In this document: piece by piece, positions 52,801 to 61,800 of the stretch
Layout: each line of letters begins with the position of its first letter
How positions within the stretch are numbered: position 1 is the stretch's first letter
NCBI RefSeq assembly: GCF_057098645.1
Contig: NZ_CM169472.1
DNA length: 64,000 nucleotides
Strand: one strand, 5' to 3'
Made by a program: the position numbers

Positions 52801-55800
52801 CCCGAGTCAGGCTGATTTTTAATGTTCAACCCTAATTGCCGCTAACCGTATATAGTTAGCGGCGGTTATGAGATATAGCTATGAGTAGCTTATTTTTAAC
52901 CGAAGATGAATTGCTAATATTAACGGGCTGCAAATATGCAAGCCACCAGCGAAAATGGTTAACGGAAAACGGGCTTCCGTTCTATACCAATCGTAGTGGC
53001 AAACCGATTGTCAGCCGGGATCTATTTACCTGCAATAAAACTTTACCACCACGCGAGGTAGAGCCGAATTTTGGTGCAATCTGATGGGAAGACGAAGGAA
53101 AAATCCTGAACACGAAAAACTACCTCCAAATGTATACCCAAATAAATATAGTTATGTATGGAAACCAACATCCAGAGAATCTGTCACACTAACCGCCATC
53201 AAGGATGGTTTAGCTGCTTTATGGAAAAGGTATGAGGAAACTGTAAATAATCGCGATCGCGCAATGACATTCGGTCGCTTGTGGGAAAAATTCCTCGCCA
53301 GCGCCTATTACAGTGACCTCAGTCCAAGAACACAAAAAGATTATCTACAACATCAAAAAAAGTTGCTTGCCGTATTCGGTAAGGTGCCGGCAGATTCCAT
53401 AAAACCAGAACACATCCGTCGATACATGGACAAGAGAGGGGAGCAGAGTAAAACGCAAGCCAACCATGAAAAAAGCAGTATGTCCCGCGTTTACAGTTGG
53501 GGGTATGAGCGAGGGTACGTGAAGGGTAACCCATGTGCAGGTGTAAGTAAATTCAAGGCCAAAAACCGCGAACGATATGTAACCGACAAAGAATACCAGG
53601 CAGTATTAAGCGTTGCACCTCTTCCTGTTTTTATCGCAATGGAAATTGCCTATCTGTGTGCAGCGAGGGTTTCCGATGTGTTATCGCTGAAATGGGAGCA
53701 GATTGGAAACGACGGAATCTTTATCCAGCAAGGGAAAACAGGAAAAAAACAGATAAAAGCATGGAGTCCACGATTACAGGCGGCGATCGAAAAAGCAAAA
53801 CAGTTACCAACATCCGCCTATGTAATCAGTAATCAATACGGCAACCGATATATGTACAAAGGCTTTAACGAAATGTGGGTAGAAGCAAGAAATCGCGCAG
53901 GCAAAATTTCAGGTATTTTAACCGACTTCACCTTTCATGATCTGAAGGCGAAAGGAATTTCAGACTATGAAGGAAGCAGTCGGGATAAGCAACTTTTCTC
54001 TGGTCACAAAACCGAGGGGCAAGTGCTAATCTATGACAGGAAGGTTAAAGTTTCACCGACACTTGATGTCCCGTTACCTGAAAATATTCCAAGAAAATAT
54101 TCCAAGTAATTCCAAGTGTGATTTTTGTCACTGACTTAATGATGTATAAGTGATTGAATTTTGGCGGAGAGAGGGGGATTTGAACCCCCGGTGGAGTTGC
54201 CCCCACTCCGGTTTTCGAGACCGGTCCGTTCAGCCGCTCCGGCATCTCTCCGTTCAGATGGTTGCCATGATGCCAGGAAATTTGGCATTTTAACAGTCCC
54301 TGTCCGTGCAATTTTGTTCAAGTGACGAGTTTGCGAGCAAAACGATGATTAAGTGGCCCTGGAAAGTACAAGAATCAGCACATCAAACTGCCCTTCCCTG
54401 GCAGGAAGCACTATCGATCCCCCTTTTAACGTGTCTGACGGAACAGGAACAAAGCAAATTAGTCACTCTTGCCGAACGTTTTTTACAGCAAAAGCGGCTT
54501 GTTCCTTTACAGGGCTTTGAACTGGATTCATTAAGAAGCTGCCGGATAGCACTTCTATTTTGCCTACCCGTTCTGGAGTTAGGACTGGAATGGCTGGATG
54601 GTTTTCATGAAGTCTTAATTTATCCTGCGCCATTTGTGGTCGATGATGAATGGGAAGACGATATCGGTCTGGTGCATAACCAACGTATTGTTCAGTCAGG
54701 TCAGAGCTGGCAGCAAGGGCCTATCGTTTTGAACTGGTTGGATATACAAGATTCTTTTGATGCTTCTGGTTTTAACCTGATTATTCATGAAGTCGCTCAT
54801 AAGCTGGACACCCGTAACGGCGATCGCGCAAGCGGAGTTCCCTTTATTCCGTTGCGTGAGGTTGCTGGCTGGGAACACGATCTTCATGCTGCAATGAACA
54901 ACATTCAGGAAGAAATCGAATTGGTTGGCGAGAATGCGGCGAGCATTGATGCTTATGCTGCCAGTGATCCTGCTGAATGTTTTGCCGTACTTTCTGAATA
55001 TTTCTTTAGCGCCCCAGAACTTTTTGCTCCTCGTTTCCCTTCATTGTGGCAACGTTTCTGCCAATTTTATCAACAAGATCCTTTGCAGAGACTGCATCAC
55101 GCTAATGATACAGACTCGTTTTCGGCGACGAATGTTCATTAATTAACAACTTTGCAGATTAATTAACCAATTGAAATGACTTATGAAATTTAGTGTTGAC
55201 AGACAAGGTACCGCTAAGTAATATGCGCCCCGTTCACACGATTCCTCTGTAGTTCAGTCGGTAGAACGGCGGACTGTTAATCCGTATGTCACTGGTTCGA
55301 GTCCAGTCAGAGGAGCCAAATTCCTGTTTTCATGCTTATCTGTACGTCTCTGTTTGTTTAGGATTCAGTAAGTTAGCATGAAAATCCTTCCCGGTGCGTA
55401 TCTGGTTTTATCTCCGCATCGGGATAATTTGGTGGTCAGATCTGGGGTCAGTTTGGTTCGATTCTGGAGTGACCCCCAAATGTCTTTAAACGATTCTAAA
55501 ATCCGCAAGTTAAAATCTTCTTCCCGTCCGGTAAAACTCTCCGACTCTCACGGTCTGTATCTGCTCGTCAATCCGGGCGGTTCGCGCATCTGGTATCTCA
55601 AATATCGTTTCAACGGAAAAGAATCCAGGGTCAGTCTTGGCGCATATCCGCTGGTCTCACTGGCAGAAGCCAGGCAGCAGCGCGACGGTATCCGTAAGCT
55701 ACTGGCGCAGAATATCAACCCGGCGCAACAGCGCATGGCAGAGAAATCCGCCTGCTCCCCTGAAAAGTGCTTTAAAGCGGTGGCGCTGGCCTGGCACAAA

Positions 55801-58800: not shown

Positions 58801-61800
58801 TGGATATTCAGCGCCCGTAAATGTTCACTGAACCGTTTGTAATATGGATATGGTCATTCACCGTTTTGAAGCTGCCGCCCGCTTTCTTCGCCAGCGCCTT
58901 CATTTCACTGCTTAATTTACTCATGAATCCCCTGCAACATAAACAAACAGTCTCCGGCGTGTGCTGTTTGGCTGCGCCAGAACGATACCTTCACGCCGGA
59001 GTGGCTGGTTGTTGAGGTTTAAGGAGTTTCAGGCTGTACGCGGTACAGACTGCCTGACGAAGCAGGGGTGTCTCCGGAGCATCGTGCCCCCCTCGGTATC
59101 GATCTTTTTCTCCTTTACTCTGAGCTGACAGCTGCCCCAAAGGGCATGTCAGACGGCGGAAATATGGCGCAGGCCAGGACTGGCGCGGCTTGCGGCGGTG
59201 AGTTGTGCGGCGTCACTTTGCCCTGTCGCTGGCGCGACCAAAGTGACGCCTTGTCTGGTGCAGGGGGGAAACGTTGCGCTTCTGGTGCAGTATTCAAAAA
59301 TTAACAGTCTGGTGCAGATTAACGGTCACGCGGCAGCAAAGCCTGCTGTCTTTGCAGGCCGCAGCCCGTCATGTAAAAGGCGCTGGTCATCAGCAAGGGA
59401 TAAGTAGGCCGGAGAAATTCCGGCAAAGGAAAGCCGTTCAGCCGGTGAAGGCCATTGCGGTAAAGCGATGACGATGGAGCTGTCCTTGTATATATGTACT
59501 TCGCCTCAAACACTTTCGCGTTCCGGTATTGCGGAGGTCGTACCGGTAGCAAGGGCTGGTCGTCCTGTTAAATCAGGGGCTTCTTGCAGACCATGAAGCC
59601 AAAGGGTGCCCGAAGGCATAGTGCAGGAGGGAGATTACACCGTTATTTCTGGCGCAGAAAGGGGAAATTCATTTTTCTGGAAAAAGGGTTTCCCCTTGAT
59701 TTTAACGTGTATTTGTGAACGTGAAATGCTGAGCTAACCTCTCAATGACCGGATAACAGGCCGTGGCTTTTGCGATGCCTGCCAGAGATCATATTCAGAC
59801 TGCATCCCCGCCCATAGCTCAGCGCGGGTATTCAGCAGCGCCGCCAGACGCAGCGCCATATCAGCCGTCACTGGCGCATGTCCATTGAGAATGCGGGATA
59901 ACCGGGAGCGGGAAATGTTCAGCGCAGAAGCTGCCTGCACAATACTTGTGCCGCCCAGATAATCACGAAGAACCGCTCCCGGATGATGCGGATTAAACAT
60001 GCGCATAAAAACGACTCCGGCTGTGACCTTTACCAGCAGTGGGATGGTATCCTGCCGCGCTTCGCTTGTCTTCTCCCGGCTTTCCGCCAGCAAAACGCTG
60101 GTGGAAAGCCGGGAGAGTCCGATTTTACTGTAACGGTGCTCTTGCGGGTTCTGTTATCAGGAGTACCGCTTTCGCATGGGTCTCTCAGTGCGGTTGCCCT
60201 GATCATCGAAGTATCTGGACGGACAGATGATTTCCGGTGATGTTTCCAGCACATCCGCAATGAGTTTTTCGCCGCGCGGCCACGAACGGCTCAGCGCGTT
60301 TGCCAGCGTGGCGGACGCCAGTCCCGCGCTGCGGGAAACCTCAGCCAGCGATGTCCTCTGTTTTCTCAGTCCCGCGATAATATCGGCGGGGTGCCAGTCT
60401 TGCTGCATCATGCTGGCCTCCCGTCGATAACCTGTACGCCGTCAGCGGTACGTATCCAGTGCGGGGCGTTCAGATCGGCGGCAAAATACCAGACCAGCTC
60501 GCACAGCAGTCCGGTCAGCGTCGTTTCGGTTTCCGGTAACAGTGAGTGACCATTCAGTATCTGCGTCAGCGCCAGACAGTAATCGCAGAGTGATTCTGCA
60601 TCAGGTTCAAAACCGGGTGAAACATCGGGAACATCATTCGTAATAAAACCGTCGATCAGATGCGGCGGGATCGGCTCGTTCAGCGTGGGCCGCAACAGTG
60701 CAAGGCAGGTATTAAGTCTGCCACAGAGCGCCATTTTTAGCGCAGGATTGTGGCATTCGATTAGGGTCTGGGCGAATCGATCGCCGTGAGCGGTCAGAAT
60801 GGTGAAATCGGTAGCGGCGCTGAAAGGAATAGAGAGTAAATCGCAGTCAGGGGAAGGACTTGTAGCCATTGGACAATCTCCAGTATGTGGTTTTAAATCC
60901 ACCATCAGAGGTTCCAATCTCCTGGGTGGTGGACTGAGCGAGGTTGGAACTACCGATCATACTGGAACCGGCGCACTTTGCAGTGCCCTCACCCAGCCCA
61001 CCATTGAGGTACAGCCAAGCGCACGACACAAAAAATGTGTCGCCAGTATGAATAATCCGGGGTTCCAATCCCGACGCCTGATTTTGCAGACGCAGGCTAA
61101 GGATACTGTGATTAGCAATGAGTCACATGAGGGCATATGGATATCCCGGAGCAGACTTACCGGGGCCAGTACCTCGCCAGAAAGAGCGCCGTTCCTGTTA
61201 TTTATTATCCCCTTACCCGTATTGAAATAAAATTCTCACGGCGTGGTTTGCCAATAAACATTGTTCGCCCCTGTTGAGAGGTGCTCCTGTCCCCCAGACG
61301 CATTCCGCTAATCTCGTCCGGTGCAAGCCCCAGTCTCAAATCCCAGGCGAACTGATCACGCAACAGGAATGATACAAACGTGGTCAAAGGCTGATAATCT
61401 TCACCTTCCGGCAAAAAAGCCAGGTAACGTTCCAGTTTCAGGTTATTAATGCACAACAAAAATTTACCACTGAGATCCGGGATATGTCTGCCGATAATGA
61501 AGTTTTTTCCCAGCACCGATTTGCCCTGCAATCCCCCTTCCCCGGTCAGTTCACTGACCCCCAGCCGGTTCTGTTGTTCCTGCGGGATTGGCACCCGGCG
61601 CAATTGCCAGTTCTCCAGTTTCACATCTGACAGATCAAAACAGTGCTCAATAAGGTTACAGACAATTTCCGGCGAGCGCCCTGTTCCGGCAAGAATGCCG
61701 GCATATGCCAGCAGTTTACTGTGGCAGATATTAAGTCGCTCACGAACCCGCGGATTACCCAGCCCGATAAGTGAATATATGCTCTGCGATATGGCATCAG

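Follow-up and report, generated by a model that had tools for sequence, protein, structure and literature searches.

Among the described systems closest to the locus treated here, Salmonella genomic island 1 (SGI1) needs MpsA, a protein with the tyrosine-recombinase fold, for its transfer (PMC6414798), and the Pfam family PF12835 is the signature for this atypical, 'INT_DTR_like' relaxase in the work of the Burrus group (PMC10484663). The SGI1 origin of transfer (oriT), which is likewise needed, is located 300-430 bp upstream of mpsA (PMC6414798), and an essential small RNA, the sgm-sRNA, is encoded between oriT and mpsA and transcribed toward mpsA (PMC9299015). The accessible part of a recent preprint reports that MOB_M relaxases (TcpM, MobK, and MpsA) are the commonest relaxases of E. 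coli and Salmonella chromosomes, that they are usually annotated as integrases, that 96% of them adjoin an integrase, and that more than half reside in islands without mating-pore genes (bioRxiv 10.64898/2026.01.13.699239). Hochhauser et al. have described E. coli defense islands that carry integrase genes alone and have no known means of transfer (PMC10121019). Here, we analyze a stretch of 64,000 nucleotides (the window; NCBI RefSeq assembly GCF_057098645.1, contig NZ_CM169472.1), positions 54000-64000 of which are 100% identical to O145:H28-type E. coli chromosomes (UTME-3, RM12761, and RM13516), and within it an island at the tRNA-Asn gene asnT. The island carries a P4-type integrase gene (int), the pseudogene of a second recombinase-fold protein, and, just upstream of the latter, an RNA motif known as EFASI. 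The Integrase_1 protein encoded by intact orthologs of the pseudogene is referred to as IntD.

Both borders of the island can be placed. The region past the end of the window was taken from RM12761 (locus L001; window coordinate = L001 coordinate + 52190), and there the 21-bp direct repeat CCAGTCAGAGGAGCCAAATTC, composed of the last 16 nt of the tRNA and the next 5 nt, occurs again about 300 bp before yeeJ. A preliminary description of this stretch had looked to a distal asnT 3' repeat to size the island, and the repeat-to-repeat distance of 13,696 bp gives a length of ~13.7 kb. RefSeq annotation places int, the IntD pseudogene, three small regulators, tssG, tssF, vgrG, two unknown genes, and a PAAR gene between the repeats, with everything after tssF lying outside the window. 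The same description had reported helix-turn-helix (HTH) regulators followed by type VI secretion system (T6SS) genes, as is indeed the case, and had proposed a distinct, partly decayed asnT-targeting element, which is borne out by the repeat borders, by an integrase only 70% identical to that of the Yersinia high-pathogenicity island (HPI), and by the lesions in the mobility genes. The island is real, inserted at asnT, and dead, a fixed relic for which excision or transfer is unlikely. In our reading, to which we assign a probability of roughly 65%, the region would be the left-hand backbone of an integrative and mobilizable element (IME) that inserted itself into asnT at its 3' end and later lost its mobility, and IntD would once have been a relaxase of the MpsA/MOB_M type. 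This kind of element, the MOB_M-type IME, has recently been described in general terms, and the asnT island is best described as belonging there, as one of a widespread backbone family.

IntD as a candidate MpsA/MOB_M-type relaxase

IntD was compared across 78 loci, drawn from one genome per species of the Enterobacterales (Escherichia to Xenorhabdus/Photorhabdus), in which its identity ranges from 52 to 89%. Intact IntD matches PF12835 (Integrase_1, 200 bits) and PF12834 (Phage_int_SAM_2) but remains below the threshold for the generic Phage_integrase family (PF00589). The sequence of SGI1 MpsA was obtained via the 51-nt homology arm of a published mpsA knockout primer, which matched one Salmonella record in a plasmid collection and had zero matches among 5426 complete E. 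coli genomes. The translated protein, of 321 aa, scores 43.5 bits for PF12835, against a threshold of 23, and is also below threshold for PF00589. IntD and MpsA share 27% identity over 196 aa (BLASTP, E 4e-6) as well as the motifs GLRxxE and GTKGGRxR, and profile comparison with hhalign gives an E value of 3e-4 over 174 columns for the pair, versus 0.11 over 27 columns for the neighboring P4-type Int. When PDB sequences were searched with the IntD profile, no nearer solved recombinase was returned, the best match being lambda Int at an E value of 0.56. At the level of sequence, these comparisons place IntD and MpsA in one family. Residues R146, K178, H240, R243, H274, and Y286 are invariant across 10 intact IntD orthologs, and the gene is under purifying selection (dN/dS 0.07-0.2 at dS 0.2-0.45), also in strains in which int is broken. 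WP_000041051 and WP_000041048 are two of the orthologs, and E. coli ATCC 8739 and FDN-24 are examples of strains with an intact IntD. Rather than a second integrase, IntD most likely represents a relaxase of the MpsA/MOB_M type built on the tyrosine-recombinase fold, with an activity predicted from these relationships.

The NCBI label for IntD is that of an integrase-domain protein, and it could instead be a true second site-specific recombinase, such as a Xer/Cre-like resolvase, an invertase, or an alternative integrase, with the palindromes of the int-IntD spacer or the CTGGYGCAG repeats (both described below) as its sites. IntD does possess the full tyrosine-recombinase catalytic set and a core-binding-type N-domain, oriented repeats are found on both sides of it in the manner of recombinase or transposase binding sites, and the module faces a different way relative to int in E. 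coli than in a Salmonella locus (L008). We nevertheless consider such a recombinase unlikely. IntD falls in the Pfam family of MpsA and no characterized recombinase is closer, it is nearly always coupled to EFASI, and a separate tRNA-targeting integrase is available in 50 of the 78 loci. As for the proposed sites, the centers of the palindromes differ, so that they could not recombine together, and the palindromes are specific to certain lineages, being absent from compact versions of the module such as that of Salmonella locus L009.

The resemblance of the relaxase candidate to SGI1 extends to its surroundings. In both, a PF12835 protein with the tyrosine-recombinase fold is encoded in an integrase-bearing island without mating-pore genes of its own, a structured RNA element is present just upstream on the same strand, at the position of the sgm-sRNA, and repeat-bearing DNA lies 300-450 bp upstream of IntD, where SGI1 has its oriT. 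Unlike in SGI1, the identity of 27% extends over only a portion of the sequence, the core-binding domain is built into IntD instead of being supplied as a separate MpsB, the integrase is of the P4 type and uses a tRNA rather than the trmE site, the cargo is different, there is no known helper, and the asnT copy is a pseudogene. The features that define the SGI1 family, namely trmE insertion, the SGI1 backbone, and sgm-sRNA homology, are absent from the asnT island. The IMEs described under the name MOB_M iMOB also provide a match, as far as a comparison by description allows: these are chromosomal, of small-IME size, and without mating-pair-formation (MPF) genes, and their relaxase is annotated as an integrase and sits beside a true integrase that is often a pseudogene. 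IntD occurs in a context of this kind, in integrase-bearing islands that lack mating-pore genes, with a P4-type int within 6 kb in the 50 loci just mentioned. EFASI, the polarity of the 9-mer, and the T6SS cargo of the asnT backbone are not described for these IMEs in the accessible part of the preprint (bioRxiv 10.64898/2026.01.13.699239).

Several observations weigh against a relaxase. For the IntD subfamily as a whole, relaxase activity, a nick site, and transfer are predictions from sequence. The similarity to MpsA is distant, with an hhalign probability of 39% and an alignment covering the N-terminal two thirds. In IntD a core-binding-like N-domain is part of the same protein, a function that SGI1 assigns to the separate MpsB, and published relaxases of the tyrosine-recombinase type are described as lacking a core-binding domain (PMC8152469). 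EFASI was not detected by Rfam in the SGI1 mob region, so the parallel in RNA and oriT is positional only and not one of homology. Finally, the module stands beside P4-satellite-like replication genes in some genera, which makes phage-mediated transfer an alternative route.

EFASI, the polar 9-mer, and the int-IntD spacer

In the window, EFASI is separated from the start of IntD by 55 nt and lies on the same strand, and the Rfam match spans the full model. The arrangement is highly constant: in 73 of the 78 loci, an EFASI-like element precedes IntD by 54-112 nt and shares its strand, and of the five exceptions four are truncated by the edge of the locus, the fifth (L084) being unexplained. Rfam recognized EFASI in all 11 loci tested, at 90-116 bits. 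An unbiased alignment of the element contains 30 consensus pairs, 15 of them with a compensatory change, and many G-U pairs on the IntD strand; this covariation and the sense-strand G-U pairs point to a folded single strand with the polarity of IntD. Rfam characterizes EFASI as 'frequently around STAXI and integrases' and of unknown function (quoted in PMC12370729). STAXI was not found in this window by Rfam, although it is present upstream of EFASI in Photorhabdus (L072), and, more generally, either a radC RNA motif or STAXI is found 350-700 bp upstream of EFASI in other genera (L060 5312-5454, L051 5351-5490, and L072 5065-5257), at the place where E. coli has repeats spaced by 27 bp.

These repeats are copies of the 9-mer CTGGYGCAG, in the form CTGGTGCAG, and are opposite in orientation to the copies downstream of EFASI. 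The 64-kb window holds 14 copies of CTGGYGCAG, 11 of which are within 57291-59657. Across the 50 loci in which IntD has at least 59% identity, the 9-mer is strongly polar, with 15 forward and 108 reverse copies in the 700 bp upstream of IntD, 119 forward and 1 reverse inside the gene, and 81 forward and 2 reverse in the 900 bp downstream, so that the switch in orientation coincides with EFASI. Relative to a background density of 0.08 per kb the enrichment is 20- to 40-fold, the IntD coding sequence included. The 9-mer is absent from loci of the Xenorhabdus/Photorhabdus type. It matches none of the oriented motifs with which it was compared, that is, Chi (GCTGGTGG), KOPS (GGGNAGGG), and ops.

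By analogy with SGI1, the IntD of intact relatives would introduce a nick at an oriT upstream of the gene that encodes it, after which the excised island would be exported by a conjugative plasmid or integrative and conjugative element (ICE) residing in the same cell. EFASI would be the counterpart of the sgm-sRNA or part of oriT, and the repeats spaced by 27 bp would occupy the place of oriT in the SGI1 layout. IntD converges on int, and the AT-rich spacer is what separates int from this candidate relaxase gene. A broader proposal is that EFASI serves as the functional counterpart of the sgm-sRNA or of oriT for a very large family of relaxase-bearing islands, found at asn, asp, phe, thr, ser, and tmRNA sites across the Enterobacterales with T6SS, Rhs, or anti-phage cargo, and that the polar CTGGYGCAG arrays and a purine-rich block in the spacer are new cis-acting parts of the transfer machinery. 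This is a tentative possibility and on balance a doubtful one; if true, it would explain the movement of the so-called integrase-only defense and T6SS islands of E. coli. The backbone fits the description of integrase-only islands given by Hochhauser et al., and the relaxase reading of IntD together with EFASI offers such islands a testable route, conjugative mobilization, as well as a candidate function for an orphan RNA motif. As far as could be found, the coupling of EFASI to a relaxase, the polar 9-mer arrays, and the conserved purine-rich block are undescribed.

The spacer agrees with the earlier account of 1.3 kb of AT-rich, non-coding DNA. Between strains it is as conserved as the flanking genes, with a mean column identity of 87%, but it contains no conserved open reading frame (ORF): a PGAP 'hypothetical protein' (56969-57268) and a small ORF (57368-57571) have no Pfam or NCBIfam match and are disrupted by indels in orthologous spacers, which indicates that the spacer is effectively non-coding. 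An Rfam scan of 54000-61500 at E values up to 1 returned only chance, microRNA-level matches in the spacer, and a scan for sigma-70 promoters and terminators found no enrichment compared with shuffled sequences. Behind int there is a likely terminator, a hairpin followed by a run of seven T that is kept in all spacer alignments; its 9-nt loop is the reason why the simple terminator scan missed it.

Two features of the spacer stand out. The first is a pair of paralogous units, A and B, of 113 bp each, which are 73% identical without gaps (BLAST) and each contain a palindrome. The palindromes differ at three position pairs, all of them compensatory, and strain E50 has an additional compensatory change at the center, which implies that the dyad symmetry is under selection. 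Such selection is, on sequence grounds, more in keeping with a hairpin formed by RNA or single-stranded DNA than with an operator recognized by its sequence. The units number one in E50 and E. whittamii, two here, and three in strain 4012, and they are absent from compact versions, as in Salmonella locus L009, in which 194 bp separate IntD from int; they are therefore a lineage-specific addition. That they act as single-strand initiation signals for an element entering cells as single-stranded DNA is speculation. Other explanations that were tried do not apply: inspection showed a misfit in spacing or sequence with CRP (TGTGA-N6-TCACA), LexA, and integron attC-type sites, intrinsic terminators are unsuitable for want of a U tract, and partner recombination sites because the central sequences differ.

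The second feature is the purine-rich block, which has several AAAGGCC repeats and is flanked by CTGGYGCAG 9-mers. It is conserved at asnT, asnV, aspV, and thrW islands and in other genera, and in every genus where it was found it is positioned after IntD and before the shared terminator. Its candidacy as a G-quadruplex is weak, given the long, non-conserved loops between the G3 tracts. Between the block and the stop codon of IntD there is a further stretch of ~500 bp of conserved non-coding DNA. In Salmonella locus L008 (7259-12100), whose module is inverted relative to int in comparison with E. coli, a 4.5-kb set encoding a D12 methyltransferase, a DUF87 ATPase, and a 453-aa protein lies between IntD and a sequence resembling the block, so this interval can hold cargo.

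Integrase, HPI, and loss of mobility in O145:H28

The asn tRNA is also the target of the HPI, and the two junctions are alike in several respects. In both, the 3' end of the tRNA is the target and is repeated directly, and a P4-type integrase of 420 aa begins 161 nt after the tRNA, in line with the ~160 bp given in the preliminary description, behind a homologous leader. In strain 81009, which served for comparison, the order of the HPI junction is asnT, int, ybtS, ybtX, ybtQ, and ybtP. The possibility that the asnT island is a remnant of the HPI, or that the lesions in its genes are errors of assembly, could appeal to this agreement in target, integrase length and position, and leader, but it is barely conceivable on the remaining evidence. 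The integrase has just 70% amino acid identity to that of 81009 and about 72% nucleotide identity, and no ybt, irp, or fyuA gene is annotated anywhere in the interval between the direct repeats, so the absence of yersiniabactin genes previously noted for the window extends to the whole island, including the part beyond the window where ybt or irp genes would have made it the HPI. In the 5426 complete E. coli genomes, about 479 have this type of int at 90% nucleotide identity or more, and 2123 form a separate class at about 72% identity, which is the class of the single HPI int sampled and probably that of the HPI-carrying genomes. The lesions, for their part, recur in independent assemblies from four countries. 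The reading as an HPI remnant or as assembly error is refuted. As judged from these alignments, the island and the HPI integration module are sisters whose cargo is unrelated, the island being set apart from the HPI by the divergence of Int, the lack of yersiniabactin genes, a size of 13.7 kb with T6SS remnants, and a second recombinase-fold gene, which the HPI does not have at this position. The asnT island of O145:H28 should not be confused with the HPI virulence island.

Although the ORF of int is intact, and although its three domains (Arm-DNA-bind_3, PF13356; Phage_int_M, PF22022; and Phage_integrase, PF00589) are all above threshold, the encoded protein carries a substitution at a critical site. 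In the catalytic set of tyrosine recombinases, position 345 holds the second arginine. In the window, Lys345 (AAG, 56512-56514) replaces this arginine of the HxxR motif, which reads HGLK compared with HGLR or HGFR in five other alleles and in the HPI, while the remaining catalytic residues, R239, H342, H369, and Y379, are kept. The 61-mer specific for the lysine allele was found exactly in 27 of 416 genomes with this int, nearly all of them O145. The other alleles sampled each have a nonsense codon, at three different positions, Q177* (three strains), Q370* (E50), and W358* (VTB96929v), and the int of ATCC 8739 carries an 'internal stop' flag. The different nonsense codons, taken together with K345, indicate repeated, independent inactivation of the integrase. 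From what is known of the enzyme family, the O145 Int is probably dead owing to R345K.

The IntD pseudogene has two lesions relative to an intact 294-aa ortholog, to which it is otherwise 90% identical. The preliminary description had counted at least two frameshifts; the number of lesions stands, but one is a frameshift, after codon 29 (near 58838), and the other an in-frame change of Q84 to TAG (58674-58676). PGAP flags the gene as 'frameshifted; internal stop' in assemblies from Belgium, the USA, South Korea, and Spain, and the presence of the same lesions in independent assemblies shows that they are not read errors but real and fixed in the lineage. Elsewhere in the chromosome, O145:H28 genomes also contain part of the spacer/IntD segment a second time, as a more distant copy.

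The cargo is likewise reduced. The core tss set is incomplete, since the annotation of the island holds just tssF, tssG, vgrG, and the PAAR gene, and a fuller cluster is present at aspV; by its gene content, the T6SS segment at asnT is the remnant of a T6SS cluster. The mobility functions are thus all damaged in O145:H28, IntD by a frameshift and a stop and Int, in all probability, by R345K, with the T6SS cargo reduced to tssF/tssG and a vgrG-PAAR module.

A recurring backbone with changing cargo

The segment 55319-61115 of the window, comprising int, its terminator, the purine-rich block, IntD, EFASI, the repeats, an HTH_35 gene, a gene for a 153-aa protein, and a C4 RNA (Table 1), recurs with changing cargo by BLAST. 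At asnT in other E. coli it is followed by Rhs cores, at the asn tRNA next to yeeO by Rhs and radical-SAM genes, at asnV by an ATP-dependent nuclease and a UvrD-type helicase as a pair, and at aspV by a full T6SS cluster (tssA, tssG, tssF, tssE, tagJ, and more), whereas thrW retains a remnant only. In Salmonella, where its sites are of the asn and phe types, it is found at asnT with Kiwa and a methyltransferase/DUF87 set and next to dsbD-cutA with further cargo. The same backbone therefore heads both the aspV T6SS island and Salmonella islands with defense systems. Within 6 kb of IntD, HTH_35 is encoded in 57 of the 78 loci and a tRNA or tmRNA gene is present in 37 (Asn 19, Phe 11, Ser 7, and tmRNA 4). 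The spacer-plus-IntD segment occurs at an asn tRNA gene in about 7% of complete E. coli genomes. In E50 (L006, 14101-17424), the island is located at the asn tRNA by yeeO in the rearranged order ldtA, asn tRNA, yeeO, asn tRNA, int, consistent with inversion or recombination between asn tRNA copies.

The aspV T6SS island and the asnT island are arranged alike, running from the tRNA through a P4-type int, a spacer that contains the purine-rich block, IntD, and a HigA-like gene to tssG-tssF, but the integrase and the tRNA target are different, and the aspV cluster continues (tssA, tssE, tagJ, and more), while at asnT tssG and tssF are followed by a divergent vgrG-PAAR module. The common backbone implies that the two are elements of one kind and that the T6SS genes have been pared down in the O145 island.

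Table 1. Positions of features of the asnT island in the window; the last row gives a window-equivalent position beyond its end
Feature	Position	Strand	Evidence or detail
tRNA-Asn (GTT), asnT, integration target	55243-55318	+	ARAGORN; Rfam tRNA 72.6 bits; PGAP order mtfA-asnT
attL, 21-bp direct repeat CCAGTCAGAGGAGCCAAATTC	55303-55323	+	Pattern search in L001; sequence reading
int upstream region, homologous to HPI int upstream region	55319-55479	+	Alignment with HPI locus and two other alleles
int, P4/HPI-type tyrosine integrase, 420 aa, intact ORF	55480-56742	+	PGAP; Pfam
int-IntD spacer	56743-58040		1298 bp; GC 39.6% vs 56% in both flanking genes and 48% in window
Hairpin and T7 run, likely int terminator	56777-56807	+	Sequence reading; kept in all spacer alignments
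Unit A, palindrome CTTCTGTGATTTGC-cc-GCAAATCACAGAAG (14+14, about 56926-56959)	56894-57006		Repeat search
Unit B, perfect 36-bp (18+18) palindrome at 57154-57189	57123-57235		Repeat search
Purine-rich block, invariant TAAGGGTAACAGCGCC	57280-57524	-	
IntD pseudogene, Integrase_1 (PF12835), MpsA/MOB_M-like relaxase candidate	58041-58924	-	tblastn against intact ortholog; Pfam; MpsA comparison; PGAP flags
EFASI RNA motif (RF02957), candidate sRNA and/or oriT element	58979-59107	-	Rfam 94.1 bits vs gathering 51.2; model 1-133, full
Three CTGGTGCAG 9-mers, 27-bp spacing	59255-59317	+	Motif scan; kept in BLAST comparisons
HigA-family antitoxin-like HTH gene	59734-60036	-	PGAP; TIGR02607 87 bits
Ner/SfsB-like winged-helix regulator (HTH_35)	60157-60411	-	PF13693 102 bits
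Conserved 153-aa protein	60408-60869	-	PGAP
C4-type antisense RNA, heading leftward gene string	60922-61008	-	Rfam C4 75 bits
isrK-like and a1/b1 target elements	61030-61106	-	Rfam isrK 52 bits; c4-a1b1 49 bits
Cargo: tssG, tssF (tssF crosses window end)	61205-64000	-	RefSeq annotation of identical sequence
attR, copy of CCAGTCAGAGGAGCCAAATTC	68999-69019		Beyond window; about 300 bp before yeeJ

The right-hand part of the backbone bears on another possible origin. All genes from the C4 RNA through IntD are on the minus strand, and this common orientation makes it plausible that they are one leftward unit governed by C4-type control. Were the island a degenerate P4-like phage satellite that had been moved by a helper phage, with IntD as an accessory gene that has nothing to do with conjugation, it would likewise be expected to have an integrase of the P4 family at a tRNA and antisense RNA of the C4/CI type with its a1/b1 targets, which in relatives precedes an ash-family ORF. 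In Photorhabdus L072, the module is in fact contiguous with such genes, in the order STAXI, EFASI, IntD, a1/b1-C4, Ash, and a P4 alpha-like primase-helicase, with two P4-type int genes and a tRNA at the flanks, and an alpha-like gene is encoded within 6 kb of IntD in 14 of the 78 loci, from which we infer that the backbone shares ancestry or modules with P4-like satellites. However, the asnT island lacks alpha, sid, delta, psu, and cos-type genes, as do the E. coli and Salmonella relatives examined, and a satellite origin would leave IntD and EFASI, the most constant parts of the backbone, unexplained. We regard it as quite improbable. The asnT island resembles P4-like satellites in its integrase, target, and antisense control and differs from them in being without the alpha primase-helicase, sid, delta, and psu.

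Of the regulators, the HigA-like gene is an orphan, with no adjacent higB toxin gene, both here and at the aspV island. The gene for the 153-aa protein is present in 24 of the 78 IntD loci, and the protein has no match in Pfam, NCBIfam, or PHROG; for the ash-like ORF of the relatives, PHROG and NCBIfam give no function.

Literature searched for asnT in combination with O145 or with yeeJ contained nothing about the asnT island. The tRNA is identified as asnT by its position directly after mtfA. On the other side of mtfA, the end of a lambdoid-type prophage (exonuclease and DUF4224; 53084-54134, plus strand) abuts a serU-type tRNA-Ser (54162-54251, minus strand), and its integrase is frameshifted according to PGAP, so that mtfA is flanked on both sides by a decayed integrase, that of the prophage and that of the asnT island. 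Further ahead of the island are small RNAs of the prophage type, the sok antitoxin (40822-40996, minus strand), DicF (49650-49701, plus strand), and STnc100 (35334-35506, minus strand). The ALIL pseudoknot, the frameshift signal of IS3-family elements, is found twice on the minus strand (27612-27728 and 49166-49282) with identical scores of 120 bits each, which suggests two copies of the same insertion sequence in the window.

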